Source: Chloroflexota bacterium (GTDB taxonomy: Bacteria > Chloroflexota > Anaerolineae > UBA4142). From it: a stretch of 64,000 bases of DNA. Shown here piece by piece: positions 2,664 to 63,410 of the stretch. Under the pieces are notes generated by a model. It had not been told where the DNA came from. It did not search any database and worked only from the letters and a program-made list of their open reading frames with translations. Numbering within the stretch: position 1 is the first letter of the stretch; each line of letters begins with the position of its first letter. The stretch is from the NCBI GenBank assembly GCA_016223105.1, contig JACRPR010000072.1, positions 7,982 through 71,981 of the forward strand, in the 5' to 3' direction. The translations under genes and the position numbers were made by a program.

Positions 2664-3344
2664 ATGAAATTTTCTCTTAACTTTGATTCCGACGTTCAAG
2701 TTCTTTTGCCGGATGGAAGCAAACGTTCGCTCATGTCCTTTCTGATTCCGAACGCGCTGTTGATGTTTGCCGCGCTCGTGTTGATGGTTTCGATGATGTT
2801 GCCGTACTGGAGTATGTCGCTCAAAGCACCGCAATACCCCAAAGGGCTCAAGGTCAACGTCTACGTCAATCATCTCGAAGGCGATGTGCGCGAGATTGAT
2901 TCGCTCAATCATTATTTGGGTATGCCGCCGCTTGATGAAGGCGGACGCTTTGAACGCTCGATCTCCATCGTCGCGATCGCGACCCTGGGTTTACTTTTGC
3001 TCGCCGGTGTGTTTGTGCATAATCAATTCGCGGCTCTGCTCGCCTTGCCCGCGCTCGGCTACCCCTTGATTTTTCTCGCGGACTTGTGGTACATTCTGTA
3101 CCAGTACGGGCACAGCATTGATCCCAAGTCTGCGCTCGGCGGCGCGATCAAACCATTCACGCCGCCGGTTTTTGGCGAAGGCAAAATCGGTCAGTTCGGC
3201 ACATTTGCCGCCCCTGAAATCGGTTTATACCTCGCGATTTTTTCCGCGCTGATCGTCCTCGCCGGCTTGTGGTTTCATCGCGCCGCGTACAAACCTCTTG
3301 TGGATGCGCGCAAACGCGTTCACGCTAGCAAGGCAACTGCATGA
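2664..3344 (+). CDS. Integral membrane protein in the nosB position (NosB-like)
   Basis: 226 aa, about 4 predicted TM helices with a periplasmic loop. Sits directly downstream of nosZ. Its stop overlaps the nosD start (ATGA at 3341-3344). The assignment rests on gene position in clade II nos clusters, not on a recognised motif. Confidence 0.45.
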   Translation: MKFSLNFDSDVQVLLPDGSKRSLMSFLIPNALLMFAALVLMVSMMLPYWSMSLKAPQYPKGLKVNVYVNHLEGDVREIDSLNHYLGMPPLDEGGRFERSISIVAIATLGLLLLAGVFVHNQFAALLALPALGYPLIFLADLWYILYQYGHSIDPKSALGGAIKPFTPPVFGEGKIGQFGTFAAPEIGLYLAIFSALIVLAGLWFHRAAYKPLVDARKRVHASKATA

Positions 3345-5650
3345 AATTGCGAATCGCGATCCTGGTTTTTAGCGCGCTCGCGTTGATCTCGATCAGCCGC
3401 GCGCACGCGCAAACCGCGAACCTCTCGCACGCGCCCGCGCTCGTCGTCTCGCCGACCGGTCCCTTCACCACGATTCAATCTGCGCTCGATGCCGCGCGCC
3501 CGGGCGATCACATTCGCGTCGAGCGCGGCGTGTACGCCGGTCCGATTATCGTCACCAAATCAGTTACGCTCGAAGGCGAGAATTTTCCGGTGATTGACAA
3601 CGGCGGCGATGGCACGGTCGTTACGCTCGACGCACCCGGCGCGATTTTGCGCGGCTTTGAATTGCGCGGCAGTGGCGTCGAACCGGATCGCGATCACTCC
3701 GGCATCGCAGTCAACGCGTCGCGCGTGATCGTCGAAAACAATCGCTTGCGCGAAGTATTGTTCGGAATTTTTGTCGCGAAGGCGAGTGATGTAATCGTGC
3801 GCGGGAACGATATTTCAAGCAAATCCGAGTACGACACCGGACGCCAGGGCGACGCGATTCGCTTGTGGTACAGCCCGCGCGCCGTCGTCGAAAATAATTA
3901 CGTGCATCACGCGCGCGATCTGATCGCGTGGTACGCGTCCGATGTGATCATTCGCAATAATCGCGTCGAGCATAGCCGCTACGGCGTGCATCTGATGTAC
4001 TGCGACCATGCGGTGATCGAACACAATCGCATCTTCGATAATTCGGTCGGCATTTACACAATGTACTCGAACGATATTCTTTTGCGCGAAAATTTTATTC
4101 GCGGCACGCGCGGACCGAGCGGTTACGCGCTCGGCTTCAAAGACGCGGACAATGTGCGCGCGACGAACAATGTGCTCGTGGACAATCGCGGCGGATTTTT
4201 TCTCGACAACACGCCGGTTACGCCGCAAGGCGAAGGATTGTTTCGCGACAACATTCTCGCGTTCAACGATGTCGGCGCGATTTTGATGCCGGCGGTGCGC
4301 GGCGCGAATTTTGAACACAACACCTTTTGGGAAAATGTCGAGCAGGTCGCGATTCAAGGAAGCGGCAAACTTGTCGGCAATCACTGGAACGAAAATTTTT
4401 GGAGCGATTATGCGGGCTACGACGCGAACGGTGACGGGCAAGGCGACCTGGCTTATCGGTCGGATCGTTTCTTTGAAGGAATGGCGGATCGCATCCCGAC
4501 ATTGCGCGCGCTGATTTACAGTCCGGTCGCGCAAGCGATTGAATTTGCCGGCTCCGCGTTCCCGATTGTGAAACCACAACCGAAAATGAGCGATCCAAAA
4601 CCGGCGATGCAAGCCGCGCCGATTCCTGGTTTTGCCTTGCCGACGCGCGATGGCGCGGGCGCGATGACCGGCGCGGCAATCGCGTTGTTATTGTTCGGCA
4701 TTGTGTCCGGCGCGTTTTCTGTCATTGCGAGCAAAGCGAAGCAATCCCCAACCGAGACCCGAAGGGTTTTCGGAAACCCTTCGGGTCTGTCCGCGTCCGT
4801 GCGCGTGGAAAATTTTTCCAAGCAGTACGGCAAGGTGCGCGCGATTGAAAACGTTTCGTTCGACGCGCGACCGGGCGAAGCATTGGCATTGTGGGGCGCA
4901 AACGGCGCGGGCAAAACAACTTTGCTCAAAGCAATCCTGGGATTGATTGATTATCGCGGCAAAATTCTGGTCGCCGATTTCGACGCGGCGCGCGCGGGAA
5001 AACAAGCGCGCGCGAACATCGGTTACGTGCCACAAGAAGCGACGTTCTACGATCTCAACGTACAAGCAACGCTCGAATTTTACGCGCGCCTCAAAAAAGC
5101 GGATCCCGCGCGCGTCCCGGTTTTGCTCGAACGCGTCGGACTCGCGGAACATGCGCGCAAACCGGTGCCCGCGTTATCGGGTGGACTCAAGCAACGACTC
5201 GCGCTCGCGGTCGCGCTGTTGAGCGATCCGCCGATTTTACTGCTCGACGAGCCGACCGCGAATCTCGACACACGCGCGCGGCGCGATTATCTCGCGCTCT
5301 TGTCCGCGTTGCATCACGAAGGCAAGACGTTGATCTTTGCGTCGCATCGCATCGAAGAAGTCGAAACGCTCGCGGATCGCGTGTTGATGATCGAAGCCGC
5401 GCAACTCGCCGAGATCATAACGCCGGAAGAATTGCGCGCGCGCCTCGCGACCGAAATCGAAATGACATTGTGGGTTGACGACGCGCAACGCGTCGCCGCG
5501 CGCGATTGTCTCGCGAATGCCGGGTTCGATCCGCGCGTCAACGGGCGCGGCACGGTGATTGTGCGCGTGCGCGCGGAACAAAAAATGCGCGCGTTCGATC
5601 TGCTGAATGAGTGCGGGGTCACGATCAAGAATTTCGAGATCGAGAATTAG
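3341..5650 (+). CDS. nosD-nosF: NosD::NosF fusion: periplasmic beta-helix Cu-maturation protein, TM helix, then ABC ATPase
   Basis: A single 769-codon frame. Signal peptide MKLRIAILVFSALALISISRAHA and a NosD-like repetitive beta-helix body. TM segment MTGAAIALLLFGIVSGAFSVIA. NosF-like ATPase with Walker A GANGAGKT, signature LSGGLKQR and Walker B LLLDEP. Confidence 0.85.
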   Translation: MKLRIAILVFSALALISISRAHAQTANLSHAPALVVSPTGPFTTIQSALDAARPGDHIRVERGVYAGPIIVTKSVTLEGENFPVIDNGGDGTVVTLDAPGAILRGFELRGSGVEPDRDHSGIAVNASRVIVENNRLREVLFGIFVAKASDVIVRGNDISSKSEYDTGRQGDAIRLWYSPRAVVENNYVHHARDLIAWYASDVIIRNNRVEHSRYGVHLMYCDHAVIEHNRIFDNSVGIYTMYSNDILLRENFIRGTRGPSGYALGFKDADNVRATNNVLVDNRGGFFLDNTPVTPQGEGLFRDNILAFNDVGAILMPAVRGANFEHNTFWENVEQVAIQGSGKLVGNHWNENFWSDYAGYDANGDGQGDLAYRSDRFFEGMADRIPTLRALIYSPVAQAIEFAGSAFPIVKPQPKMSDPKPAMQAAPIPGFALPTRDGAGAMTGAAIALLLFGIVSGAFSVIASKAKQSPTETRRVFGNPSGLSASVRVENFSKQYGKVRAIENVSFDARPGEALALWGANGAGKTTLLKAILGLIDYRGKILVADFDAARAGKQARANIGYVPQEATFYDLNVQATLEFYARLKKADPARVPVLLERVGLAEHARKPVPALSGGLKQRLALAVALLSDPPILLLDEPTANLDTRARRDYLALLSALHHEGKTLIFASHRIEEVETLADRVLMIEAAQLAEIITPEELRARLATEIEMTLWVDDAQRVAARDCLANAGFDPRVNGRGTVIVRVRAEQKMRAFDLLNECGVTIKNFEIEN
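4721..4749 (+). repeat. Family C half-element (GTCATTGCGAGCAAAGCGAAGCAATCCCC) inside the nosD::nosF linker
   Basis: Same motif as the left arm of the 79-bp element at 19355-19433. Translated here as VIASKAKQSP. Confidence 0.7.
4755..4788. repeat. Palindrome family P copy (AGACCCGAAGGGTTT-tcgg-AAACCCTTCGGGTCT), in frame in the nosD::nosF linker
   Basis: 15-bp perfect arms with a 4-nt loop. Translated as ETRRVFGNPSGL. Confidence 0.85.
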
Positions 5651-5727
5651 GGGTTGGAAGTTGGAAGTTGGAAATTAGAGATTGGATTGTCGCGCGAGGC
5701 GCATCCAGCATCCAACGTCCAACTTCA
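5651..5727. repeat. Word-repeat hairpin (GGAAGTT/GGATTGT words) between nosDF and nosY
   Basis: GGTTGGAAGTTGGAAGTTGGAAATTAGAGATTGGAT ... ATCCAGCATCCAACGTCCAACTTC. Confidence 0.7.
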
Positions 5728-6565: not shown

Positions 6566-7053
6566 GAAAATCCCAATTACCAATTACCAATTACCAATTA
6601 CTCCTGGGTTTGAGTTTGCTGATTGCGCTATTCCTGAGCGCGTGCGCGCAACCAACCGGCGAGCCGAAACCGCCGGACATTGTGTACAATCGCGATATGT
6701 GCGAAGCGTGCGGAATGATTATCAGCGATGCGCGCTTTGCCGCCGCGACGTTGACGACAGACGGACGATCGCTCAAGTTCGATGACGCGGGCGAAATGTT
6801 CGGTTATCACGCGCGCAATTCCCAGGTTCAAGTGCGCGCGTGGTTCGTCCACGATTACGATTCGCAAAAATGGATCAATGGCAAGGACGCGTTTTACGTG
6901 ATCGCGCGCGACATCAAATCGCCGATGGGCACCGGCGTCGCGACATTCGCAGAGCGCGCGAACGCGGAAACTTTGGCGAAACGCTTCAACGTCAATGTGT
7001 TGACCTTCGATCAAGCTTTCACGGCAATCAAGGAGGGCAAATCGGGAATGTAA
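6562..7053 (+). CDS. nosL: NosL copper-chaperone lipoprotein
   Basis: Start overlaps the nosY stop (ATGA). Lipobox LSAC. DMCEACGMII metal-binding motif typical of NosL. Confidence 0.85.
   Translation: MRKSQLPITNYQLLLGLSLLIALFLSACAQPTGEPKPPDIVYNRDMCEACGMIISDARFAAATLTTDGRSLKFDDAGEMFGYHARNSQVQVRAWFVHDYDSQKWINGKDAFYVIARDIKSPMGTGVATFAERANAETLAKRFNVNVLTFDQAFTAIKEGKSGM
6574..6601 (+). repeat. Tandem heptamer (CAATTAC)x4 inside the nosL 5' end
   Basis: Four exact 7-nt units, translated as PITNYQLL in the signal-peptide n-region. Related word runs at 33557-33611 and 48075-48102. Confidence 0.9.
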
Positions 7054-11088: not shown

Positions 11089-11104
11089 TTTGATCTCCTT
11101 GGAA

Positions 11105-11180
11105 TTTAGATGTTGGAAATTGGAGGTTAGAAGTTGGAACGCGCAATCCAACTTCCAACTTCTAACATCCAACATCCAAT
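11105..11180. repeat. Word-repeat hairpin (GGAAGTT/GGATGTT words) downstream of metK
   Basis: GATGTTGGAAATTGGAGGTTAGAAGTTGGA-acgcgca-ATCCAACTTCCAACTTCTAACATCCAACATC. Confidence 0.75.
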
Positions 11181-12406: not shown

Positions 12407-12467
12407 GATTTCAAATTTCAAATTTCAGATTGATGAATCTGAAATCTGCAATCTGAAATCTGAAATT
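12407..12467. repeat. Word-repeat hairpin (GATTTCA/AATCTGA words) between ahcY and metK
   Basis: GATTTCAAATTTCAAATTTCAGATT-gatga-ATCTGAAATCTGCAATCTGAAATCTGAAAT. Confidence 0.8.
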
Positions 12468-12468
12468 C

Positions 12469-13764
<1,296 letters not shown>

Positions 13765-17307: not shown

Positions 17308-17535
17308 AAAAAAAAATCTCTCCGCGCAAGAGAGAGAACGTCAAAACACGCGTCTCATCTCCCAAGCCAAAGCACAGCGGCTTGCCGGAATTGGCACCGA
17401 TTTAGTTGGATAGTTGATTAGTTGGATAGTTGGTTAGTTGAATGTCAACTATCCAACTATGAAACTATATAACTATTGCACTACCGGTTGCCGAGGTTTC
17501 ACAGGGCCGATCCCTCCACCTCTCTGGATGAGTGT
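17308..17535 (-). promoter_or_regulatory. SAM-I (S-box) riboswitch with an intrinsic terminator, 5' of mtnA
   Basis: Minus-strand RNA: CUCAUCCAGAGAGGUGGAGGGAUCGGCCCUGUGAAACCUCGGCAACC-[~95-nt P3]-GGUGCCAAUUCCGGCAAGC...GGGAGAUGAG. This is followed by UCUCUC-uugcgcg-GAGAGA and U9. Confidence 0.88.
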
Positions 17536-17559: not shown

Positions 17560-17588
17560 TTTATAGCACAAGCGAAATGTTTTGTCAA
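17560..17588 (-). promoter_or_regulatory. Sigma-70-like promoter for the riboswitch-mtnA unit
   Basis: Minus strand TTGACA (17583-17588), 17-nt spacer, TATAAA (17560-17565). Confidence 0.5.
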
Positions 17589-31979: not shown

Positions 31980-33680
31980 TCAGGGTGAGACCGCAAGTTC
32001 AACCGGCAATTTTCCCCGCGCACTCGCTTTGCCGGTCAACACCTCCGCGAGCGCGTCGATCATCGGCGGATTCGCGCCATAGATTGCGAGGTACGTCGGC
32101 GCGTTTGGAAACGCGAGCAGATCATACGGCGAACGCGTCGCGATCACAATCGTCGGCGCGTTCAGCTTGAGCAACGCGTTCACCAAATCGGCTTGCGCGC
32201 GATTTTTCGCGGCGTCGCTTGTCGCGACGATCACCACGCGACCATCTTCCGCGATTTTCAACACGGACGCGATTTCGCTCTGCGTCGGTTGTGCTTTCAC
32301 TTGCATCGTGGTCGCGCCGAGCAATTTGCCGATCCCAAAATTTCCGGTTTCGATCACAAGCAATTTCGCGTCGAGCTTGAGCGGAACGCGATTCGCGTAA
32401 TCGCGCACGAGCGTAACCGCTTGGTGCGCGACCGCGCGCGAGATTGCTTTCATTTCCGGTGAACCGACGCGAGAGAGTGCGTCTTTCGACTCCGCTTCGC
32501 TCCGCTCAGGACGCGGATTCAAAATTCCGAATTGTTGTTTCGCGCGTAAAATTCGCGCAACGGCTTGATCCAATCGCGTCTGCGAAATCACACCGCGTTG
32601 AACGTGATCCAAAAGTTGCGCGTGCACTTGGCGATGCATCGCGTATCCGGTTTGAAACAGCAAAATGTCCGCACCCGCGCGCAACGCGGCGGACGCGGCT
32701 TGCGGCGCGGGATAGCCGCTTTTCGCGATTGCGCCCATCGTCAACTCGTCCGTCATCACGAGACCGTCGTAGTGCATTTCGTCGCGCAATAATCCGGTCA
32801 ACACATTTGGCGAAAGCGTCCCGGCGAGACCTGGTGTCGGATCAATCGCGGGAAACGTGATGTGCGCGGACATTATCCCGGCGACGTTCGCGCGCATCGC
32901 GGCTTTGAACGGCACGAACTCGATTGATTCGAGTCGCGCGCGGTCATGCGGCACGGACGATAACGCGACATGCGAATCAACCGCGGTGTCGCCGTGTCCG
33001 GGAAAATGTTTTCCAATCGCGATCATCCCCGCGCTTTGCATTGCTTCGATGTACGCGACGCCGTACTCGGCGACGCGCGCGGGATCGGAACTGAACGCGC
33101 GCGTGCCGATGATCGGATTGTTCGCGTTGTTGTTCACGTCGAGGTCGGGCGTCAAATCCATATTAAATCCGAGCGCGCGCATCTCCGCGCTGATCGCCTG
33201 CGCGATGCGCCGCGCGTTCGCGAGATCGTTCGTCGCGGCGACCGCCATTTGGCTGGGAAATTCGGTGAACCCTTTTTCTTCTTTCAGCCGCGCGACGATG
33301 CCGCCCTCCTGATCAATCGTGATCAAGAGCGCGGGATCGCCGTTCGCGCGCATCGCGTTTTGCAAATCCGCATTGAGTTGCGCGACCTGGTTTGGCGATG
33401 CGACGTTGCGATCATAAAAAATCACGCCGCCGATGTGCAGTTGCGTGATCCCTTCGCGCAATTCTGGCGTGAGCGTCGTGCCGTCGAAACCGATCAACAT
33501 CAGTTGACCGATTTTTTGTTCGAGGGAGAGCGAATCGAGAGATTGAGAGAGTGAGCGATTGGGTATTGGCATTGGGGTAATTGGTAAATGGTCAGTGGTA
33601 ATTGGGGTTGGCGCGGGCGCGCAACGGACGAGCGCGACAAGCCATAGGAAAAATGTAATGATGAAAATAAATTTGTTCAT
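31980..33680 (-). CDS. Glycoside hydrolase family 3 (NagZ-like beta-N-acetylhexosaminidase) lipoprotein
   Basis: Signal/lipobox LVALVRC. LEQKIGQLMLIGF, IDQEGGIVARL and KHFPGHGDTAVDSH motifs. Has an extra C-terminal alpha/beta domain. Confidence 0.8.
   Translation of the reverse strand: MNKFIFIITFFLWLVALVRCAPAPTPITTDHLPITPMPIPNRSLSQSLDSLSLEQKIGQLMLIGFDGTTLTPELREGITQLHIGGVIFYDRNVASPNQVAQLNADLQNAMRANGDPALLITIDQEGGIVARLKEEKGFTEFPSQMAVAATNDLANARRIAQAISAEMRALGFNMDLTPDLDVNNNANNPIIGTRAFSSDPARVAEYGVAYIEAMQSAGMIAIGKHFPGHGDTAVDSHVALSSVPHDRARLESIEFVPFKAAMRANVAGIMSAHITFPAIDPTPGLAGTLSPNVLTGLLRDEMHYDGLVMTDELTMGAIAKSGYPAPQAASAALRAGADILLFQTGYAMHRQVHAQLLDHVQRGVISQTRLDQAVARILRAKQQFGILNPRPERSEAESKDALSRVGSPEMKAISRAVAHQAVTLVRDYANRVPLKLDAKLLVIETGNFGIGKLLGATTMQVKAQPTQSEIASVLKIAEDGRVVIVATSDAAKNRAQADLVNALLKLNAPTIVIATRSPYDLLAFPNAPTYLAIYGANPPMIDALAEVLTGKASARGKLPVELAVSP
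32486..32511 (+). repeat. Short repeat TCGACTCCGCTTCGCTCCGCTCAGGA inside the GH3 gene
   Basis: The reverse complement is found at 58387-58412 inside the E2 gene. Translated here as ERSEAESK. Confidence 0.75.
33557..33611 (-). repeat. CAATTAC-type word run inside the GH3 N-terminal tether
   Basis: GATTGGGTATTGGCATTGGGGTAATTGGTAAATGGTCAGTGGTAATTGGGGTTGG, translated as PITTDHLPITPMPIP just after the lipobox. Confidence 0.7.
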
Positions 33681-34810: not shown

Positions 34811-34957
34811 TTGGAAATTGGAAATTAGAAATTGGAAGTTGGAAGACGTGATACGTGATGCGTGATAATCTCACGCATCACGCATCACGTTTTACGTTTT
34901 ACGTTTTACGTTTTACGTTTTACGTTTTACGTTTTACGCTTTACGCTTTACGTTTTA
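34811..34957 (-). repeat. Composite intercistronic element: (ACGTTTT)x10 tandem, a GATGCGT-word hairpin and TTGGAAA words
   Basis: Ten 7-nt units at 34887-34956. Hairpin ACGTGATACGTGATGCGTGA-taatc-TCACGCATCACGCATCACGT at 34846-34890. TTGGAAATTGGAAATTAGAAATTGGAAGTTGGAAG at 34811-34845. The substrate-binding-protein stop at 34955 lies within it. Confidence 0.85.
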
Positions 34958-36889
34958 CTTGATCGTCCAACTTTCCGCGTAGAACGGAATGTATTTGCCT
35001 TCGTTCACATCATAGTACGTGAACGGCGGATAGAGCGCATTGCTCAAGACCGCGCCGCTTGCCATGATGTTGTCCGTCGAATAGAGATTGTAATTCGCTT
35101 TCGGTGGTTGCACGTACGGGTACGAGGTCTTGAATTCTTTCGCGCGATTCGTCGCGCTCGGTTTGAGTTGACCGCTCAAGAGCTGGCGCGCGACCGGCGA
35201 ATTGTTCTGATTGTTTTTGTAAATCTTGTCGTCCACCGGCAACCAACCGGTCACCCGCGTCTTGGTGTCAATCGGATCGGTGAGGTAGCGTTCGAACATC
35301 ATCAAGACGGGCAAACTGTCGTTGAAGAACGATGCGACATCGGCGATGTAGGGTTTTTGTTTTTCCGCGTCAAACCCTTCCGCCATCTTGTCCACCCATT
35401 CCTTGATGTTGATCTCTTTGCCATCCGCGGTTTTTTGCTTGAACGGCAAGTTGATGCCGCGTTCGCCTTCGTTGCCTTCGGGATTGTTTTTCCAACCCGC
35501 GCTCACCACACCCGGGCGCAAGTTGTAATCGAAGGAAACGTACGGGTGAAAGTACGTAAAGCGGAAACCAATGTCCATCGAAATTTGATACTTGCCGGCT
35601 TTGTGGAGGTTGGTGCGTTCGGACGATTGGTACGGCTTGACCGTGATCTTGATGCCGAACTTGGTTAATTGTTGCGCGACGTTTTCGGACGACGCGAGGT
35701 ATTCGGTGAAATCGGCGGGCACGCTCAATTCAAATTCCAGTTTCTTGCCCTTGTCATCCACCCAAATGCCATCCGCGCCTTTTTTGAAATTGAGCCCAGT
35801 CAACAACGCTTCGGCTTTTTTCACATCCGCATCGTACGTGTTGAGTTTGGCAAGTTGCGCGGCGGAAAGCCAGGTCGGCACTGCGGCATCGGTAAAGCCG
35901 GCTTCGTACTTGACCGGGCGGCACGCATCGCCGAACGCAACCTTGCAATTTTCAACGCGATCAATCGCGTACGCGAATGCCTGGCGCACTTCTTTTTTGT
36001 TCAGCGGATAGACATCGTTGTTAAAGTACATCCCGGGTCCGTTCGTCCCAGGTCCGCCGAGCACGACCATGTGATTGCCGACCGCGCGAATCGCTTGCAA
36101 ATTCGCGGGGCTGTACGCGTTCGAGGAATAGTCCATATCGTTCGAGAGATACAATGGCATATCCTGAACGGTGTCGCCCCAGTACACGGTAACTTTGTCG
36201 AAATCAATCTTGTCCGCGTTGAACCCGGACGCGTTCTTGACCATCGTGAATTGCGCTTCGGTAACTTGTTTCGGATCAATGTTGAACGGACCGTAGACGA
36301 TCGCGCTCGGCGGGCGGAACGCGTTCATTTCGTCGAGCGTTTTGGTTACGTCCGCGCTTTTGCGGTCAGTGTTATTTTTGCGAAAACCGGCGGCGGCGTC
36401 CATCCATTTGCCGTACTGCGCGTACGGACGCGTGACGGTCGCGCGCACAATCGTGTCGAGAATCGCGGGACCGGGGGTTTTGATCGTGAACTCGACGGTC
36501 GCGTCATCTTTCGCGACGACATCGTTCAGCGCGTTCCAGGTCGAGCTGGTTTGCATCCACAAAATGTTGTACGTGCCGACGACATCTTTCGAGCTGAACG
36601 CGGAGCCGTCGCTCCATTTCATGCCCTTGCGAAGATTGATCGTGATCGTTGTAACGCCGGGCGCGGCGGGTTTAGTTGGCTCTGCCGGTTTCGTGGCAAC
36701 CGGCGCGGTCGTCGCCGCGGGCTTGGTGGGTTCCGGTGCTTTGGTTGCCGGCACCGCGGTCGGCGGCACCGCCGCCGTTGGTTTCGGCGCGTCGGTCGGT
36801 TTAGGCGCGGGCGTCGGCGTTGGCGCGGCGCACGCGACGAGCGCGACAAGCGCGATCAGCAATGTGAGCGCGAGCAAAATCTTTTTCAT
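34955..36889 (-). CDS. ABC transporter substrate-binding lipoprotein, family 5 (peptide/nickel/oligosaccharide type)
   Basis: Lipobox LVAC followed by a ~60-aa Pro/Thr/Ala tether. Family-5 body (INLRKGMKWSDGSAFSSKDVV...). Confidence 0.8.
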   Translation of the reverse strand: MKKILLALTLLIALVALVACAAPTPTPAPKPTDAPKPTAAVPPTAVPATKAPEPTKPAATTAPVATKPAEPTKPAAPGVTTITINLRKGMKWSDGSAFSSKDVVGTYNILWMQTSSTWNALNDVVAKDDATVEFTIKTPGPAILDTIVRATVTRPYAQYGKWMDAAAGFRKNNTDRKSADVTKTLDEMNAFRPPSAIVYGPFNIDPKQVTEAQFTMVKNASGFNADKIDFDKVTVYWGDTVQDMPLYLSNDMDYSSNAYSPANLQAIRAVGNHMVVLGGPGTNGPGMYFNNDVYPLNKKEVRQAFAYAIDRVENCKVAFGDACRPVKYEAGFTDAAVPTWLSAAQLAKLNTYDADVKKAEALLTGLNFKKGADGIWVDDKGKKLEFELSVPADFTEYLASSENVAQQLTKFGIKITVKPYQSSERTNLHKAGKYQISMDIGFRFTYFHPYVSFDYNLRPGVVSAGWKNNPEGNEGERGINLPFKQKTADGKEINIKEWVDKMAEGFDAEKQKPYIADVASFFNDSLPVLMMFERYLTDPIDTKTRVTGWLPVDDKIYKNNQNNSPVARQLLSGQLKPSATNRAKEFKTSYPYVQPPKANYNLYSTDNIMASGAVLSNALYPPFTYYDVNEGKYIPFYAESWTIK

Positions 36890-36905
36890 TTTCTTCTCCT
36901 CCGAA

Positions 36906-36960
36906 TTAGTTGGATAGTTGAATTGTTGAATTGTTGGATAGTTGGATAGTTGTTGGTTGA
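36906..36960 (+). repeat. One-armed word run (GGATAGTT/GAATTGTT words)
   Basis: TTAGTTGGATAGTTGAATTGTTGAATTGTTGGATAGTTGGATAGTTGTTGGTTGA. Confidence 0.7.
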
Positions 36961-38902: not shown

Positions 38903-39880
38903 TCATGTCGTACGCCAATTCCAACACGCGACGCGATGCCCGCTCGCAATCTCTTCCAGTTCCGGCTCATCGCGTTTGCACCGCGCGTCCGCGCGCGGAC
39001 AGCGCGGATGAAATTTACACCCGCTTGGCAATTCGATCAAGTCCGGCGGCGAACCTGGGATCGAAGTCAAATCTTCTTTCGCGCCTTGAAGCGTCGGCAC
39101 CGCGTTGATCAAGCCAATCGTGTACGGATGCGCGGGCGTTTTGAACGTCGTCGTAACATCTGCAAATTCGACGATTTTGCCGGCGTACACCGTCGCGACA
39201 CGATCGGCGAGTTCGGCGGCGAGCGACAAATCGTGCGAAATAAAAATCAACGAGAAATCGAGTTTGCCGCGCAATTCTTTCAGCACGTCCATAATATTGC
39301 GTTGCGTCAGAATGTCGAGCGCGGTCGTCGGCTCATCGAGAATCAAGAGTTGCGGTTCGAGCAGTAAGCCGAGCGCGATCAGCACGCGTTGCCGCATGCC
39401 GCCGGACAATTCGTGCGGAAACGATTTCCACACGCGTTCCGGATCGAGCCGGACGAGCGTGAGCAAATGTTCCGCGCGTTCTTTCAGCGCGCGCCCTTGC
39501 AAATAGTTATGCGCGCGCGCCGTGTCGCCGAATTGATCCGCGATGCGTAAAACCGGGTTGAGCGAGTTGAGCGCGGATTGAAACACCATCGCGCACTCTT
39601 TCCAACGAAACTCGCGGAGGGCTTTGCCCTTCAGCGTGAGCGCGTCAATCGTTTTATTGTCGCGATGATACAGCGCATTGCCCTGCGTGATCTTCGCGGT
39701 ACTCGGAAGCAATTGCACCACGCCCAAGCCGAGCGTCGTTTTGCCGGAACCGCTTTCGCCGATCAGCGCGAGCGCATCGCCACGCGCAACGTCGAAGGAC
39801 ACGTTGCGAATCGCGCGCACCTTGCCGCGCCGCGCGGCGTATTCGATGGATAAATTTTGAACAGATAAAGTTGGAGGCAT
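38903..39880 (-). CDS. ABC transporter ATP-binding protein (OppD/DppD-like)
   Basis: ATG 39880; the upstream extension is repeat-encoded. Walker A GESGSGKTT, signature LSGGMRQR, Walker B LILDEPTT. Confidence 0.85.
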   Translation of the reverse strand: MPPTLSVQNLSIEYAARRGKVRAIRNVSFDVARGDALALIGESGSGKTTLGLGVVQLLPSTAKITQGNALYHRDNKTIDALTLKGKALREFRWKECAMVFQSALNSLNPVLRIADQFGDTARAHNYLQGRALKERAEHLLTLVRLDPERVWKSFPHELSGGMRQRVLIALGLLLEPQLLILDEPTTALDILTQRNIMDVLKELRGKLDFSLIFISHDLSLAAELADRVATVYAGKIVEFADVTTTFKTPAHPYTIGLINAVPTLQGAKEDLTSIPGSPPDLIELPSGCKFHPRCPRADARCKRDEPELEEIASGHRVACWNWRTT

Positions 39881-39968
39881 AGTTGGATGGTTGGATAGTT
39901 GGGTAGTTGGGTAGTTGAATAGTTGCGTGGTTGGAAGAATTATCCAACTATCCAACTATTCAACTATC
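39880..39968. repeat. Word-repeat hairpin (GGATAGTT/GGGTAGTT words)
   Basis: ATAGTTGGATGGTTGGATAGTTGGGTAGTTGGGTAGTTGAATAGTTG ... TTATCCAACTATCCAACTATTCAACTATC. Confidence 0.75.
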
Positions 39969-39971
39969 TAA

Positions 39972-40085
39972 TTTGACAATGTCAGATTAGCCACAGAATC
40001 ACACAGAAACACACAGAATAAGAAAAAATTTCTGTGAAATTCTGTGTGTTTCTGTGGCAGAAAAAGGAAATCTGACATTGCCAAA
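39972..40085. repeat. Nested two-level hairpin (outer GACAATGTCAGATT, inner CACAGAA words)
   Basis: TTTGACAATGTCAGATT-[AGCCACAGAATCACACAGAAACACACAGAA ... TTCTGTGAAATTCTGTGTGTTTCTGTGGC]-AATCTGACATTGCCAAA. Confidence 0.8.
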
Positions 40086-42549: not shown

Positions 42550-42625
42550 TATGGGACGCGGATGAGCGCGGAGGAACGCGGATAAAAAAGAATAATCCGC
42601 GTTCGTCCGCGTTTGTCCGCGTCCA
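42550..42625. repeat. Family R ~76-bp hairpin element (copy 1 of 3)
   Basis: TATGGGACGCGGATGAGCGCGGAGGAACGCGGATAAAAAAGAATAATCCGCGTTCGTCCGCGTTTGTCCGCGTCCA. Confidence 0.85.
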
Positions 42626-46353: not shown

Positions 46354-46430
46354 TATGGGACGTAGATGAACGCAGATGAACGCAGATTTTTTCTTCTTAT
46401 CCGCGTTCGTCCGCGTTTGTCCGCGTCCCA
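46354..46430. repeat. Family R hairpin element (copy 2 of 3)
   Basis: TATGGGACGTAGATGAACGCAGATGAACGCAGATTTTTTCTTCTTATCCGCGTTCGTCCGCGTTTGTCCGCGTCCCA. Confidence 0.85.
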
Positions 46431-46729: not shown

Positions 46730-47884
46730 TCAATACAGCAAGTATTTTTTTCTGATCAGATCAAACCGCGCGAGATCGGCGTCCCACGCGCGCGTGATAG
46801 TTTCGATGGAATGATTCGCGATCAACCCTTCGCGCACGCGCACATCGCCGGTGAGCAAATCGAAATGCGGTGGGCGACCTTCCCAACTCGTTTGCAAAAA
46901 CTCGAATTGATTTGGCGCGAGCGCGCGGCAAGTCGCGATAACATGCAAGCCGGTCGGAATCGCGCGGAACGCGTTGCGGTCGGTGATGTGCAATTGCGCG
47001 CCGAAACATTCGACGCCCGCGTGTTTGCTCGAACACGGCGTGAATGCAATCGGACGAAAAATCACGCCGGCGAGTTTCAACGCGTTGAGCGATTCCGCGA
47101 GCGCGTAGCCATCGAGAAACGGCGCGCCGACAATTTCAAACGGGAACGGCGTGCCGCGCCCTTCGGAAAGATTTGTGCCTTCGATGAAACACATTCCCGG
47201 GTACGGAATCGTCGTCGCGAAATTTGGAATGCCGGGCGATGGCGTAACCCAGGTCAAGCCGGTTTCATCGAACCACATTGCGCGATCCCAGTCGCGCATT
47301 TCAATCACGCGCAAATCCGCGTTGATGTTCAACTCGCGATTGTAGAATCGCGCGAGTTCGCCGAGCGTCATTCCGAATCGAATCGGGAGCGCGCCGTGCC
47401 CGATGAACGATTGCAAACCTGGGTCGAGCAGTGCGCCTTCGATGATTCTGCCGGTGATTGGATTCGGGCGATCCAAAACGATGAGCGGTTTTTGATTTTC
47501 CGCGCAGGATTCGAGCGCGAGTCCGAGTGTCGCGGTGTAGGTGTAAAAGCGCGCGCCGACATCTTGCAGATCGAAAAGCAAAATGTCCACATCCGTGAGC
47601 ATTGCGCGCGTCGGCTTGCGAATCTTACCATAGAGCGAATAGACCGGCAACCCCGTGCGCGCATCGCGCCCCGATTCGACTGCCGCGCCGTCCGCCGCAG
47701 ACGCGCTGAATCCGTGTTCGGGTCCGAATAGCGCGACGAGATGCACGCCCGCGTCGCGCAACGCGTCCACGTTCGAACGCAGATCGCGCGTAACGCCGGT
47801 TGGGTTCGTGATCAGACCGACGCGTTGGTTACAAAGCACATCCAATTTTTCGGTGAGTAAAATTTCGAGACCGGTTTGAATCAT
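46730..47884 (-). CDS. DUF1343 family protein (NamZ-like exo-beta-N-acetylmuramidase candidate)
   Basis: 384 aa. RVGLITNPTGV, LFGPEHGF and DLQDVGARFYTY motifs characteristic of DUF1343. Confidence 0.8.
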   Translation of the reverse strand: MIQTGLEILLTEKLDVLCNQRVGLITNPTGVTRDLRSNVDALRDAGVHLVALFGPEHGFSASAADGAAVESGRDARTGLPVYSLYGKIRKPTRAMLTDVDILLFDLQDVGARFYTYTATLGLALESCAENQKPLIVLDRPNPITGRIIEGALLDPGLQSFIGHGALPIRFGMTLGELARFYNRELNINADLRVIEMRDWDRAMWFDETGLTWVTPSPGIPNFATTIPYPGMCFIEGTNLSEGRGTPFPFEIVGAPFLDGYALAESLNALKLAGVIFRPIAFTPCSSKHAGVECFGAQLHITDRNAFRAIPTGLHVIATCRALAPNQFEFLQTSWEGRPPHFDLLTGDVRVREGLIANHSIETITRAWDADLARFDLIRKKYLLY

Positions 47885-48074: not shown

Positions 48075-48102
48075 AATTGCCAATTACCAATTACCGATTG
48101 CC
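48075..48102 (+). repeat. CAATTAC-type word run supplying the stop codon of anmK::murQ
   Basis: GAATTGCCAATTACCAATTACCGATTGCC. On the minus strand it reads ...GGC AAT CGG TAA (GNR*). Confidence 0.7.
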
Positions 48103-50151
48103 CAACGCGCCGCGCACCGAACCACCCGCCGCGCGCAAACGTCGCCGCGCGTCGTCCGCCGAAACACGCGCGAGCGCGATCACAATCGCGGTCTTCACTT
48201 CGCCGTCCGCGCGCGCGAGCAATTGCTCCGCCTCGTCCTCCGCGATGCGCGCCGCGGTCGCGACGATGCGCCGCGCGCGGTCGCGCAGTTTCACATTCGT
48301 CGCTTGCACATCCACCATCAAATTGCCGAACGTTTTGCCAAGCCGGATCATTACGCCGGTGCTGAGTTTGTTCAGCACCAATTTTTGCGCGGTGCCGGAT
48401 TTCATCCGCGTCGAACCGGCGATCACTTCGGGCCCGACGAGCGGCGCGATGTTGATCTGCGCGACATCCTGGATCGGCGCGGGGCGATTGCACGCGACCG
48501 AGATCGTCAGCGCGCCGCGCGCGTGCGCTTCGATCAACGCGCCGATCACATACGGCGTGCGCCCGCTCGCCGCGAGCCCGACGACCGAATCGCGCGCGGA
48601 CACATTCAAATTCGCGAGATCGAGTTTGCCTTGCTCCGCGTCATCCTCCGCGCCTTCAATCGAACGCGTGATCGCCGCGTTGCCGCCCGCGATGATCGCG
48701 ATCACTTGATCGGGGCGCGTGCTAAATGTCGGCGGCATTTCCGACGCGTCGAGCACACCGAGCCGCCCCGACGTGCCTGCGCCGATGTAAATCAACCGAC
48801 CACCCGCGCGCATCCGTTCCGCAATCGCGTCCACCGCTTGCGCGATGTGCGGCAGTTCAACCGCAACCGCGTGCGCGACGCGTTGATCTTCCGCGTTGAT
48901 GCGCCGCAACATTTCGAGCGTGGACAACGTATCAATCTCCGCTGTCGCGGGGTTGTGCGCTTCGGTGAAGTTGGAGGTTGGATGTTCGATGTTGGAAGTT
49001 GGACGCGCGCCGGGGGTGATGTTGCCGAGAATGACCGGATGCCGCGCGCCGGTTGCCGCGGGGACATTGCCGGCGCGCTGAAACCAGGTCTCGTGCGCGA
49101 GAATCGCGAACGCGAGCGCTTCTTTCGCTTCGCTCGCGACGCCCAGCTCATCAATAGCGATCACGCGCGCGGGCGCGAGCAAATCGCGCAGAATTTGCAT
49201 CAAGGTTCGATTCAACGCGCCGCCGCCGGAAACGATCACCTCGTCCACGCGCGTCGGCAGAAAATCGCGATACGCTTGCGCGATCGAGTGCGCGGTGAAC
49301 GCGGTGAGCGTCGCGATAATGTCGTGATCGGAAATGCCGCGCGCTTTTGCGCGCTCCCACACCGGCGCGCCGAATTGCGCGCCGAACAATTCGCGCCCGG
49401 TTGTTTTTGGCGGCGATTGTTGCAAGTACGGTTCGTTCATCAACTCGCGCAAGAGTTGATCATTCACGCGACCTTGCGCGGCGAGCGCGCCATCGCGATC
49501 AAATGTTTGCGCGCCATTCGTCGCGCGTTGCGTCGCGTAATCAATCAGCATATTGCCGGGACCGGTGTCGAACGCGAATGGCGGTAGGGGCGACGCATGC
49601 GTCGCCCCTACCGGCGGCAAATACGTCACATTCCCAATGCCGCCAATGTTCTGCGCGGCGCGCGTCAAAACGGGATGCGCGAACAATATCACGTCGAGGT
49701 GCGGCACGAGCGGCGCGCCTTGTCCGCCCGCCGCCATATCGCGCGTGCGAAAATTTGAAATCGTCGTGATGCCAGTGCGCTCCGCGATCACCGCCGGTTC
49801 GCCGAGTTGCATTGTGGACGCGTCCTTGCCTTCGGGAATATGCCACAGCGTTTGACCGTGACTGCCGATGAGATCGACCTGGTCCGGTTGCAGTTGCGCG
49901 CGCGCGATCACATCGAGCGCGGCGCGCGCGAACGCTTCGCCGAGTTGAAAGTTGAGCGCGCACAAACGATCCACCGTGCCGTGCGCGGGGCGAAAGCACG
50001 CGAGAATTTCGTCGCGCAACGCGGGATCGAAATGCGCGTGATGATGCGCGCGCAGTTTCCATTCGAGCGCGGGCGGTGCGCCGGTAATTTCGACGACGAC
50101 GGCATCAATGCCATCTGCGGATGTGCCTGAAATCATTCCAACGACAAGCAT
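48091..50151 (-). CDS. anmK-murQ: AnmK::MurQ fusion: anhydro-N-acetylmuramic acid kinase fused to N-acetylmuramic acid-6-phosphate etherase
   Basis: A single 686-codon frame. N-terminus [18 protein letters not shown] (AnmK). C-terminal SIS domain [25 protein letters not shown] (MurQ). The linker is repeat-encoded. Confidence 0.85.
48967..49003 (+). repeat. GGAAGTT/GGATGTT word run forming the AnmK-MurQ linker
   Basis: GAAGTTGGAGGTTGGATGTTCGATGTTGGAAGTTGGA, translated on the minus strand as [13 protein letters not shown]. Confidence 0.8.
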
Positions 50152-50162
50152 AATTTAATCCT

Positions 50163-50262
50163 GGGGGTTGGAAGAGTGTCATTCCGAACGAAGTGAGGAA
50201 TCTCCTGTTCGTCACGCGAGACACTTTGCTTTTCCAACTTCCAACATCTAATTCCCGACTTC
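50163..50262. repeat. Nested hairpin (outer GGAAGTT words, inner GTCATTCCGAACGAAGTGAGGAATCTCC element) between the GntR gene and anmK::murQ
   Basis: GGGGGTTGGAAG-AGTGTCATTCCGAACGAAGTGAGGAATCTCCTGTTCGTCACGCGAGACACT-TTGCTTTTCCAACTTCCAAC. Confidence 0.7.
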
Positions 50263-50985
50263 CAACGTCGAGTGGAATTTGTAACGGTCGCCGCGATAGA
50301 TTGAATGAACGTGTTCGATCAAGATGCCTTGGTCGGTATACGTCACGCGTTCCATTTTGAGCACCGGCGCGGGCAAGTCCAATCGCAACAATGTGGCTTG
50401 GCGCGCGTCGGCGAGCCCGGCTTCGATCGTTTGTTCCGCGCGCGTGAGTCGAAAACCGTACTCGTGTTCAAGCACCGCGTAAAGCGATTCGGTTGCGAAA
50501 TCGTGCCGAAGCAAATTTGGAACGCGCGCGTGCGGAATGTGGACGGTTTCAATCGCGAGCGGTATTTTGTCGGCGATGCGGAGACGCGCGAGCAAAACGG
50601 TTTCGGAATTGGGGAGAATGTTCAACCGTTGCGCGAGCGCGTCATCCGCGCGCACGATCCGCGCTTTGAGTACGCGCGATGCGGGGTGACTACCGCGCGC
50701 TTGGACATCCTGGCTAAAGCCGGAGAGCGTTTTGAGTTCCTGATCAATTTTGGGCGTGTTCGCGAACGTGCCTTTGCCGATGCGACTGTAGATCAAACCT
50801 TCGCGCGTGAGATCGAGCAATGCCTGCCGCACGGTCATACGACTGACGCGAAAACGCGCGCACAGATCGCGTTCGGAGGGAAGTTGCTGGTGCGCGCGCA
50901 ATTTGCCGGCAAGAATGTCGGCACGGAGTGAATCTTTAAGTTGGGCGTACAACGGGAGGGGGTGGTTGCGGTTCAGACGCGCCAT
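50248..50985 (-). CDS. GntR/HutC-family transcriptional regulator (UTRA effector domain)
   Basis: ATG 50985. wHTH region LPSERDLCARFRVSRMTVRQALLDL. C-terminal UTRA-like region. Confidence 0.85.
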   Translation of the reverse strand: MARLNRNHPLPLYAQLKDSLRADILAGKLRAHQQLPSERDLCARFRVSRMTVRQALLDLTREGLIYSRIGKGTFANTPKIDQELKTLSGFSQDVQARGSHPASRVLKARIVRADDALAQRLNILPNSETVLLARLRIADKIPLAIETVHIPHARVPNLLRHDFATESLYAVLEHEYGFRLTRAEQTIEAGLADARQATLLRLDLPAPVLKMERVTYTDQGILIEHVHSIYRGDRYKFHSTLEVGN

Positions 50986-51000
50986 TGCGACTCCAATCAA

Positions 51001-56036: not shown

Positions 56037-56059
56037 CTCTGTAGTTGCATAGTGAAATA

Positions 56060-56119
56060 GTTCGATAGTGCGATAGTTAAAAACTATCGCACTATCGAAC
56101 TAGGAAACTATCGCACTAT
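56060..56119. repeat. Word-repeat hairpin (CGATAGTG words) between the liv substrate-binding-protein gene and livH
   Basis: GTTCGATAGTGCGATAGTT-aaaa-AACTATCGCACTATCGAAC followed by TAGGAAACTATCGCACTAT. Confidence 0.8.
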
Positions 56120-58988: not shown

Positions 58989-59002
58989 CCAAGTGAGTTC
59001 CT

Positions 59003-59060
59003 TTATTTCCCTTATTTCCCTCATTTCCGTATCGGGAAATGAGGGAAATGAAGGAAATTA
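59003..59060. repeat. Word-repeat hairpin (GGAAATGA words) between the M24 and E2 genes
   Basis: ATTTCCCTTATTTCCCTCATTTCC-gtatc-GGGAAATGAGGGAAATGAAGGAAAT. Confidence 0.8.
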
Positions 59061-61210: not shown

Positions 61211-61285
61211 TAATGCGTGATGCGTGATGCGTGATGCGTGAACCTCACGAATCACGCATCACGTTTTACGTTTTACGTTTTACGA
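61211..61285 (-). repeat. ACGTTTT/GATGCGT composite element abutting the E1-beta stop codon
   Basis: TAATGCGTGATGCGTGATGCGTGATGCGTGA-acc-TCACGAATCACGCATCACG followed by (TTTTACG)x3. The stop at 61280-61282 lies inside it. Confidence 0.85.
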
Positions 61286-62266
61286 TTTCCCGCAGAGCAT
61301 ACGCGCCATTTCAAAAACTGTTTGCTCCGTCGGCACCGTTACATCTTCGAGCGTGGGCGAAAATGGCACCGGCACATTCAGTGCACCCATTCGTTTGACC
61401 GGCGCGTCGAGATAGTAAAACGCGCCTTCCGCGATGACCGACGCGATTTCGGCGGTGACACCGTACTGCTCGTACCCTTCGTCAATCACAATCGCGCGCG
61501 AAGTTTTTTTCGCGGACTCGATACAAGTTTTTTTATCGAGCGGCAACGTCGTGCGCGGATCGATCACCTCCGCGCCGATACCGATTTGCGCGAGCATCTC
61601 CGCCGCGCCGAGCGCGACCTGCACCATCGAACTTGTCGCGACGAGCGTGATGTCACTGCCCGCGCGTTTCACATCGGCAACGCCGAACGGAATCGTGTAA
61701 TCATCCGTCGGTACAACACCTTTCATTTTGAACATCATCTTGTCTTCAAAAAAAACGACCGGGTTGTTATCGCGAATCGCGGTTTTCAGCAAACCCTTGG
61801 CATCGTACGGCGTTGATGGAATCGCGACTTTCAACCCAGGAATGTGGCTGACCCACGCGTGCAAACTTTGCGAGTGTTGCGCCGCCGAGCGTCGCGTCGC
61901 GCCCATCGTCGTGCGAAACACCATCGGCACATTCAGTTTGCCGCCGGACATGTAATGCACTTTGGCGGCTTGGTTCGCGATTTGATCCATCGCCAGTGTG
62001 AGAAAATCGCCGAACATTAAATCCACAACCGGGCGCATCCCGGTCATCGCCGCGCCAACGCCGATGCCGGAAAAACCAGGTTCAGAAATCGGCGTGTCAA
62101 TCACGCGCGCTGTGCCAAACTCTTCGACCAAGCCGGATAAAACTTTGAACGGCGTTCCCGCTTCGGCGACATCTTCGCCGAAGATGAACACGCGCGCATC
62201 GCGCCGCATCTCCTCCGCGAGCGCTTCGCGGATCGCTTCGGCAAACGTGATTTCGCGATCAGACAT
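61280..62266 (-). CDS. 2-oxoacid dehydrogenase E1 component, beta subunit
   Basis: 328 aa. VFIFGEDV...GTARVIDTPISEPGFSGIGVGAAMTGMRPVV transketolase-like pyrimidine-binding domain. Confidence 0.9.
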   Translation of the reverse strand: MSDREITFAEAIREALAEEMRRDARVFIFGEDVAEAGTPFKVLSGLVEEFGTARVIDTPISEPGFSGIGVGAAMTGMRPVVDLMFGDFLTLAMDQIANQAAKVHYMSGGKLNVPMVFRTTMGATRRSAAQHSQSLHAWVSHIPGLKVAIPSTPYDAKGLLKTAIRDNNPVVFFEDKMMFKMKGVVPTDDYTIPFGVADVKRAGSDITLVATSSMVQVALGAAEMLAQIGIGAEVIDPRTTLPLDKKTCIESAKKTSRAIVIDEGYEQYGVTAEIASVIAEGAFYYLDAPVKRMGALNVPVPFSPTLEDVTVPTEQTVFEMARMLCGKS

Positions 62267-62288: not shown

Positions 62289-62364
62289 TATGGGACGCGG
62301 ACAAACGCGGATGAACGCGGATAATTTTCTCTTGTCCATGTTTGTCCGTGTTAATCCGCGTCCA
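62289..62364. repeat. Family R hairpin element (copy 3 of 3) between E1 alpha and E1 beta
   Basis: TATGGGACGCGGACAAACGCGGATGAACGCGGATAATTTTCTCTTGTCCATGTTTGTCCGTGTTAATCCGCGTCCA. Confidence 0.85.
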
Positions 62365-63356: not shown

Positions 63357-63410
63357 AAAACGTAAAGCGTAAAACGTGAAACGTAATTGCGCTTTACGTT
63401 TTACGTTTTA
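63357..63410 (-). repeat. ACGTTTT-word hairpin abutting the stop codon of the dehydrogenase gene
   Basis: AAAACGTAAAGCGTAAAACGTGAAACGTAA-ttgc-GCTTTACGTTTTACGTTTTAT. The stop at 63408-63410 lies inside it. Confidence 0.8.

Follow-up and report, generated by a model that had tools for sequence, protein, structure and literature searches.

A fused anmK-murQ gene of Chloroflexota with a translated heptanucleotide array between its two enzyme domains

Results

The fused gene

We analysed a stretch of 64,000 nucleotides (nt) from contig JACRPR010000072.1 of a Chloroflexota bacterium (assembly GCA_016223105.1, Anaerolineae), referred to below as the window. One of its open reading frames (ORFs) joins AnmK, a kinase for 1,6-anhydro-N-acetylmuramic acid (anhMurNAc), to MurQ, an etherase for N-acetylmuramic acid 6-phosphate (MurNAc-6-P), through a short linker encoded by tandem copies of a 7-nt word (Table 1). 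The AnmK half matches Pfam PF03702 over residues 2-380 (model positions 2-366 of 367; 362.9 bits, cut-off 24) and the NCBIfam equivalog NF007148 for anhydro-MurNAc kinase over residues 1-381 (model positions 9-385 of 386; 497.6 bits, cut-off 387). For the MurQ half, the NCBIfam models NF003915 and TIGR00274 match at residues 394-684 (6-296 of 300; 413 bits, cut-off 168) and 396-683 (3-290 of 291; 372.3 bits, cut-off 302), respectively.

Structure alignments were used to locate the key residues. Residues 5-362 of the 371 in Pseudomonas aeruginosa AnmK (3qbw) align with the kinase half, and D195 of the fusion corresponds to D182, which we take to be the catalytic base. The N-terminal phosphate-binding motif G-x-M-S-G-T-S-x-D-G is present at residues 5-14. 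The MurQ half aligns without gaps to residues 13-302 of the 303 in Haemophilus influenzae MurQ (4lzj), so that the connector replaces just the first ~12 residues of a free-standing MurQ. In this alignment E471 and E502 of the fusion correspond to residues 89 and 120, which are presumably the catalytic glutamates equivalent to Glu83 and Glu114 of the Escherichia coli enzyme. Asp195 sits in FDTGPGN, Glu471 in LDASE and Glu502 in GAEDD, and an alignment of 37 relatives shows S8, G9, S11, D13, G14, D195-N200, E471 and E502 to be invariant. Since the models are matched end to end and the key residues are in place in the structure alignments, both enzymes are complete. The ORF is a genuine, complete AnmK-MurQ fusion, as a preliminary description of this DNA had proposed in reporting one 686-codon frame with two entire enzymes.

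Table 1. Features of the anmK-murQ locus and of the corresponding loci in relatives (L numbers); coordinates refer to the window, except for L089
Feature	Coordinates	Strand	Description
AnmK-MurQ ORF	48091..50151	minus	ATG start; single uninterrupted 686-codon frame in the ORF list
AnmK domain (1,6-anhydro-MurNAc kinase, ASKHA fold)	49012..50151	minus	residues 1-380
MurQ domain (MurNAc-6-phosphate etherase, SIS fold)	48100..48966	minus	residues 396-684
Inter-domain linker	48967..49011	minus	residues 381-395; 15 residues between the ends of both hidden Markov model matches
Heptamer array in linker	48968..49002	minus	five tandem units, coding strand
Hypervariable AnmK surface loop	49576..49611	minus	residues 181-192; perfect 26-nt palindrome at 49585-49610
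GGTAATT-family heptamer array	48075..48102	minus	holds TAA stop 48091-48093; encodes last three codons, G-N-R
gntR / anmK-murQ intergenic region	50152..50266	minus	eroded GTTGGAA-array hairpin (50163)
GntR/UTRA-family regulator	50248..51000	minus	PF00392 + PF07702; upstream of fusion
NamZ exo-beta-N-acetylmuramidase	46730..47884	minus	PF07075 + PF20732; downstream of fusion
L084 linker			CCAACTT x4 + CCAGCTT, 5 units
L081 linker			8 alternating CCAATTT/CCAACTT units
L167, L168, L169 linkers			decayed traces of CCAACTT-type word, 69-73% identity
L003 linker			TCAGCCN heptamers
L170 linker			AAATTTC heptamers
L172 linker			GACGAAG heptamers
L171 linker			GAATCAGC octamers + short AATCTCC-type run
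L002 linker			GAATCAGC octamers + TCCAAAA heptamers
L089 junction	1737-1830 (in L089)		same frame, single stop

The linker is array DNA

On the coding strand the five linker units read CCAACTT, CCAACAT, CGAACAT, CCAACCT and CCAACTT, that is, four different sequences with just two identical copies, which are not adjacent. Tandem Repeats Finder (TRF) delimits the repeat at 48970-49003, with a period of 7, 4.9 copies and a score of 47. With up to two mismatches, the word GTTGGAAGTTGG is found 29 times in the window, compared to 3.2 +/- 1.8 times in shuffled sequences, and four of the 29 matches fall in the linker; this enrichment indicates that the array is not a product of chance. The position given in the preliminary description, 48967-49003, was right to within 3 nt, and the word enrichment and TRF also bear out its assignment of the linker to the heptamer family of nearby intergenic arrays. 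Its further statement, that this family forms hairpins at five sites, held only in part. When RNA folding was compared with that of shuffled sequences, array/inverted-array hairpins were found at 5651 (z = -5.4) and 11105 (z = -8.8), and the one at 50163 is weak and eroded, but the arrays at 13750 and 34811 are single-armed and have no inverted partner.

The linker array is itself single-armed and unstructured as RNA, with a fold z of +1.24 and 180 of 200 shuffled sequences folding equally well or better. This z value, together with the missing inverted partner, rules it out as a hairpin arm of the kind seen at 5651 and 11105. Neither the word CCAACTT/AAGTTGG nor the five-unit linker array contains a stop codon in any register on either strand. 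We also looked for a separate internal start of MurQ, and found no ATG or GVG with a Shine-Dalgarno sequence ahead of the conserved T396-E397-x-x-N-P; the nearest candidate, a GGAG followed by TTG, would remove invariant MurQ residues. In a gene map of the window the linker is the sole unambiguous AT-rich word array deep within a verified domain architecture; the greedy map overcounts internal arrays, as it includes TTG-extended ORFs and GC-rich coding repeats.

The fusion is widespread and conserved

A protein search was performed over 5.8 billion sequences, and the best 120 non-redundant matches were taken. All of them are fused (613-769 residues, 59-90% identity), and 117 of the 120 cover 99-100% of the query. 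Thus the survey of gene arrangement in relatives that the preliminary description had called for gives a fused state in at least 120, with separate genes in six relatives at 55-63% identity that are described below. The fused proteins carry the names Anaerolineae, Anaerolineales, Anaerolineaceae, Longilinea sp., Thermoflexales and Thermoflexia, and database examples are CAG0944952.1, MBP7355289.1 and HNR45543.1. They keep the domain order, the length class (674-769 residues) and the neighbourhood of the window, and differ just in the linker and in two loops. Public records name these proteins for one half alone, either the kinase or the etherase. The two closest relatives (~90% identity) were found on JGI/ENA metagenome contigs from different samples, P0001 on three and P0002 on seven; an identical fused protein was thus recovered from independent assemblies, and all ten contigs are in frame. 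The exact 686-residue protein of the window had no match in the public collection.

The ratio of nonsynonymous to synonymous substitutions (dN/dS) was calculated for AnmK residues 1-178, AnmK residues 193-380 and MurQ residues 396-684. Across four comparisons it ranged from 0.08 to 0.38: 0.08-0.24 with L081, 0.15-0.19 with L084, and 0.13-0.38 with L167 and L169. Both halves are under purifying selection.

More distant fusions also exist. At the 50%-cluster level, a library of representatives contains at least 11 further AnmK-MurQ clusters at 38-49% identity (among them P0125-P0127, P0130, P0140, P0147, P0151, P0159, P0160 and P0221), and P0124 and P0148 are fusions in the reverse order, MurQ-AnmK, with AnmK matched at residues 300-676 and 356-720. 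These reverse-order proteins and further clusters indicate that the pair fuses readily, and it has probably fused more than once. A literature search for an AnmK-MurQ fusion found no description within the searched library, where PMC13198582 lists both genes separately.

Variable, repeat-bearing linkers and loops

Measured from Pro380 to Thr396, the linker ranges from 10 to 47 residues among 121 fused proteins and falls into 28 length classes, while two control segments of equal length are invariant in length across the same proteins. The majority-residue frequency is 0.26 in the linker versus 0.77 in the domains. Linker DNA was read for 11 fused relatives: eight contain clear short tandem arrays, and three contain decayed period-7 traces (Table 1). 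Relatives of ~90% identity have five versus eight units, a frame-preserving step of three units (21 nt), and two 99%-identical fusion proteins differ solely by a 9-residue (27-nt) indel in the linker. A change by a single unit was not observed; the differences seen all preserve the frame. The linker word and the hairpin word of the spacer between gntR and the fusion are of one family in the window, L081, L084 and L167, and in L172 the GACGAAG family of the linker is that of an array just downstream (L172 3660-3720). The match between linker and flanking array in these five loci hints at short-range copying of arrays.

Repeats are translated inside the domains too. The hypervariable AnmK loop lies three residues ahead of the strand carrying the catalytic Asp. 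The reading frame runs through its palindrome, TAGGGGCGACGCATGCGTCGCCCCTA, which occurs once in the window and can form a 14-bp hairpin (z = -3.7). The loop is 4-68 residues long in the 121 relatives, and solved AnmKs are 6-7 residues shorter there. It holds three copies of CACACGC in L084 and 7.9 copies of CAGCCAT, the family of its own linker, in L003. In L081, L088 and L167 it holds a whole array/inverted-array element, translated RRDAEG...LRLRGE, and in other relatives palindromes of the VETQH...SLQ type. A third and rarer repeat site among relatives is the lid loop of MurQ, around residue 635. Neither of these loops was ever intergenic, and the presence of the same repeats there therefore indicates that repeat DNA marks a structurally permissive site and is no proof of a former spacer.

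An AlphaFold2 model of the fusion, built from a 37-sequence alignment, has a mean predicted local distance difference test (pLDDT) value of 82.9. Four segments fall below 50, residues 184-188 and 379-394 among them, and in this model the linker and the AnmK loop are predicted to be disordered and flanked by confident domains. The predicted template modelling score (pTM) is 0.52, which leaves the orientation of AnmK relative to MurQ undefined.

Unfused relatives fall within the fused clade

Outside the fused clade, in Haemophilus, Vibrio, Gastranaerophilales, Planctomycetota and others, anmK and murQ are separate, adjacent and co-oriented. These pairs, as well as that of Ca. Aquidulcis, have the same enzymes in the same order on the same strand, 0-100 nt apart, and several share a frame with one stop between. 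In contrast to the fusion they yield two polypeptides, and MurQ retains its own start codon and ~12 N-terminal residues.

The six unfused relatives mentioned above are L001 (Ca. Aquidulcis), L087, L089, L090, L093 and L094. A metagenome scan, where the generic pattern FDTGPGNM dominated and few fused relatives appeared, helped to find unfused ones; a genome-contig scan with MurQ-wide motifs gave at least three Chloroflexota loci among the matches listed. In L001, L087 and L089 the two genes share a frame and are divided by one stop. There is a 30-nt spacer without a tandem array in L001 (5164-5200), and in L087 (2631-2650) the sequence ...ITP* is followed by 12 nt and then MHEPRPMPTTETRNP, again with no tandem array in the spacer. 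Each of these single-stop splits could reflect a real fission, read-through or an error in sequencing. The spacers of L090 and L094 are short, and L093 (2670-2930) has a spacer of ~260-290 nt full of GGGAAAC, GGGATAA and GAGATAA heptamers with TAA.

A neighbour-joining tree was built from concatenated domain sequences (650 columns, 77 taxa, 60 bootstraps), and ancestral states were assigned by equal-cost (Fitch) parsimony. Every one of the 60 bootstrap trees placed all six unfused relatives inside the clade spanned by the fused proteins, and in 59 of them the clade ancestor was assigned the fused state, with 4-5 changes. The tree is crude, but in combination with the wide distribution of the fusion it makes a single early fusion followed by later fissions the simplest reading. 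A stop-bearing array, such as that of L093, looks more like something that breaks a fusion than something that makes one.

Arrays at the ends of the fusion and its neighbours

The array at the stop codon of the fusion consists of GGCAATC GGTAATT GGTAATT GGCAATT, and TRF places it at 48075-48099. Because a 7-nt period is out of step with the codons, such an array brings each unit into all three registers within 21 nt, and one whose units bear TAA ends every reading frame over that distance. Both the sequence and TRF agree with the earlier suggestion that the word run at 48075-48102 supplies the stop codon. The C-terminal tails of the fusion proteins differ among relatives.

Upstream, the GTTGGAA array (50234-50266 by word matches, 50232-50266 by TRF; fold z = -2.7) extends over the final codons of the GntR/UTRA gene and its TAG stop. 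At the site of the eroded hairpin, L081, L084 and L167 have a clear array/inverted-array hairpin. The regulator ends ...LEVGN before TAG in the window and ...LGVGS before TAG, from a GTTAGAA variant unit, in L081; arrays thus also contribute C-terminal residues and stop codons to neighbouring genes. The gene order is kept in relatives: GntR/UTRA, fusion, NamZ, solute-binding protein and permease(s).

Other repeats and fusions in the window

A second fused gene, nosD::nosF, is a single 769-residue ORF at 3341..5650 on the plus strand, with NosD at residues 168-359 and ABC_tran at 503-640. Between its domains lies a palindrome (4755-4788) with perfect 15-nt arms, AGACCCGAAGGGTTT/AAACCCTTCGGGTCT, translated TETRRVFGNPSGL. 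It belongs to a family with seven copies in the window, at 4755, 7497, 10369, 14531, 52706, 58576 and 58723, and is thus a dispersed palindrome and no heptamer array.

Nearly all gene boundaries in the window carry an AT-rich word of 7-10 nt in tandem copies, often with an inverted array that would complete a long hairpin. Sites include 2576-2655, 5645-5723, 11099-11180, 12408-12466, 17402-17476, 34811-34958, 36903-36952, 39879-40056, 42556-42622, 46360-46426, 56057-56119, 58998-59058, 61213-61288, 62295-62352 and 63357-63410. Word families are many: ACGCGGATGA/TCCGCGTTCG recurs at 42556, 46360 and 62295, TAGTTGGA at 17403, 36907 and 39879, and ACGTTTT at 34887, 37206, 61261 and 63357. A literature search for heptanucleotide tandem arrays in Chloroflexota/Chloroflexi found no published description within the searched library.

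Three further ORFs contain arrays. The 772-residue ORF at 17585-19903 (minus), with a PMT_2 glycosyltransferase domain at residues 184-269, has internal arrays at 18476-18564 and 19022-19092, with the words AAAAGTA, GTAATGC, AAATCTG, GAGTGGGT and CTCCCCCT; either these arrays are translated or the ORF caller has joined two genes. Within the first ~50 codons, arrays occur in a GH3 (NagZ-like) ORF at 31980-33680 (minus; array 33537-33605) and in the nosL ORF at 6562-7053 (plus; array 6573-6601). Either the longest-ORF starts of these two probably lie upstream of the true ones, or N-terminal leader residues are encoded by the arrays.

Discussion

The fusion is most likely a bifunctional enzyme of MurNAc and peptidoglycan salvage; we infer both activities from family membership and context. 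The AnmK domain would open and phosphorylate 1,6-anhydro-MurNAc to MurNAc-6-P, and the MurQ domain would strip the D-lactyl ether from this product to give N-acetylglucosamine 6-phosphate. In this respect it resembles the Rosetta-stone fusions, as consecutive steps reside on one chain and the etherase acts on the product of the kinase, and there is nothing mechanistically distinctive about AnmK-MurQ.

What, then, is the relation between the fusion and the repeat in its linker? We consider it quite probable that the repeat is a passenger and not the cause: the protein would be a bifunctional enzyme of an ordinary kind, with a disordered linker in which a stop-free array is tolerated. The two genes would have fused once, early in the history of an Anaerolineae-type branch of Chloroflexota, probably when the stop was lost between an anmK and a murQ that lay close together in the same orientation. 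The connector, disordered and unconstrained in sequence, would then behave as intergenic DNA does in these genomes, where arrays of 7-10-nt words fill it densely; arrays would arise in it or spread into it, and turn over there. Selection may act as a filter, admitting arrays that are single-armed, stop-free in the reading direction and changing by steps of three heptamers (21 nt). The present occupant in the window would be the five-unit CCAACTT array, of the family of the hairpin ~1.2 kb upstream, which encodes a spacer peptide of the P-T-S-N-F/I-Q/E type. We infer this order of events and the filter from the comparisons given above.

Several observations weigh against this account. The supporting tree is a neighbour-joining tree on 650 columns with short internal branches, the parsimony costs are equal, and the ancestral-state call is driven by the basal placement of the fused L091. 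All sampled linkers are repeat-like, as a continually refreshed relic of an ancestral repeat-bearing spacer would be. The junction of the window itself rests on one assembly. Finally, the AnmK half scores higher on a fungal levoglucosan kinase (4zxz, its best structure match, 283 bits) than on the bacterial AnmK structures 3cqy (234) and 3qbw (222), and the substrate assignment therefore leans on the NCBIfam equivalog and on context; the fusion to MurQ and the neighbouring NamZ lead us to favour anhMurNAc over levoglucosan as the putative substrate.

It is tempting to go further than a passenger, and to regard the arrays as an active, locally spreading system that rewrites linkers and loops and toggles between fusion and fission. 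Stop-free families (CCAACTT, CAGCCAT, AAATTTC, GACGAAG) would keep anmK and murQ fused, stop-bearing families (GGTAATT, GGGATAA) would split or end genes, and the match between linker and neighbouring array would reflect short-range copying. We regard this extension as rather unlikely.

We find it quite doubtful that the repeat made the fusion, as the preliminary description had it: an intergenic array between the two genes would have lost a stop, or suffered a deletion within the array, and read-through would have followed, recurrently. The geometry is suggestive, as the linker lies exactly at the spacer position and replaces just ~12 N-terminal MurQ residues, and most sampled linkers are array DNA. 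Moreover, L093 has separate genes with a heptamer-array spacer, GTTGGAA is among the few array families of the window that are stop-free on both strands, which makes read-through possible, and the nosD::nosF linker likewise holds a dispersed repeat. However, the fused state is ancestral in our reconstruction and found in at least 120 relatives, while repeat family and copy number in the linker vary between them, which speaks against repeat DNA as the cause at this locus. The intradomain loops carry the same repeats, and the array of L093 carries stops in a relative that is nested in the fused clade. Nor is a repeat required, since the short array-free spacers of L001 and L087, with one in-frame stop, make it unnecessary. 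Hence the view of anmK::murQ and nosD::nosF as two cases of genes fused across repeat DNA retains its descriptive part, in that both are single ORFs with linker repeats, but the causation it implied is not supported; that the very first fusion arose across an ancestral spacer repeat has a small probability.

A contingency switch, in which slippage by one or two units would shift the frame and toggle the MurQ half phase-variably, appears highly improbable. In its favour, gain or loss of 7-nt units does shift the frame unless it comes in threes, CCAACTT stands in four perfect copies in L084, and in the tree split lineages are interspersed with fused ones. Phase-variable loci, however, have homogeneous tracts, and the tract in the window is short and heterogeneous, a poor slippage substrate; the ten contigs of the two closest relatives are uniformly in frame, and the product is a cytoplasmic housekeeping salvage enzyme and no surface antigen. 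It is hardly credible that a collapsed or miscounted heptamer in the assembly or consensus conceals two genes. In favour of such an error, short tandem repeats are easily misassembled, there is no second record of the exact protein, and a few relatives do carry a stop at the junction. Against it, the two domains are in frame across an array of fitting length, as they are in all close relatives, independent assemblies of different samples yield identical fused proteins, and no evident start codon or ribosome-binding site serves a separate MurQ, with conserved T396, E397, N400 and P401 directly after the linker.

In-frame repeats tolerated within ORFs, whether selfish or neutral, are known from the Rickettsia palindromic elements (RPEs) and from other, MITE-like insertions, which occupy permissive surface sites and are translated as an extra peptide; RPEs are elements of 100-150 bp with a conserved peptide (PMC10969869). 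The likeness lies in a repeat translated within an uninterrupted ORF at the low-pLDDT linker and at loop residues 184-188, and the close analogues are the 26-nt palindrome of the AnmK loop and the hairpin elements at the same loop in L081, L088 and L167. The linker is different: it holds 35 nt of a tandemly repeated 7-nt word, in a single arm, and its copy number changes in steps of 21 nt. A likeness in kind is found in the heptanucleotide short tandemly repeated repetitive (STRR) sequences of cyanobacteria, reportedly described by Mazel et al. in 1990, which form genome-wide families of tandem 7-nt words that are mostly intergenic. They differ in phylum, the relatives here being Chloroflexota, and in words (GTTGGAA, GGTAATT, ACGTTTT and others here). 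To the best of our knowledge, STRRs are not known to encode inter-domain linkers, nor to pair with inverted arrays as hairpins at almost all gene boundaries. STRRs have been used for fingerprinting (PMC5088731).

The locus reveals no new mechanism of gene fusion, and the genome-wide repeat system is a more unusual feature than the fusion. The locus offers a clean natural experiment: two tightly conserved domains lie on either side of a connector in which any stop-free short tandem repeat is tolerated, so that alignments can show directly how copy number changes, how families replace one another and what stop-bearing units cost. For peptidoglycan recycling, the finding means that a whole branch of Chloroflexota has its predicted anhMurNAc kinase and MurNAc-6-P etherase on one polypeptide, a ready system for testing substrate channelling between the two steps. 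As public records label these proteins by one half, pathway reconstruction from annotation can wrongly score a missing step in these organisms.

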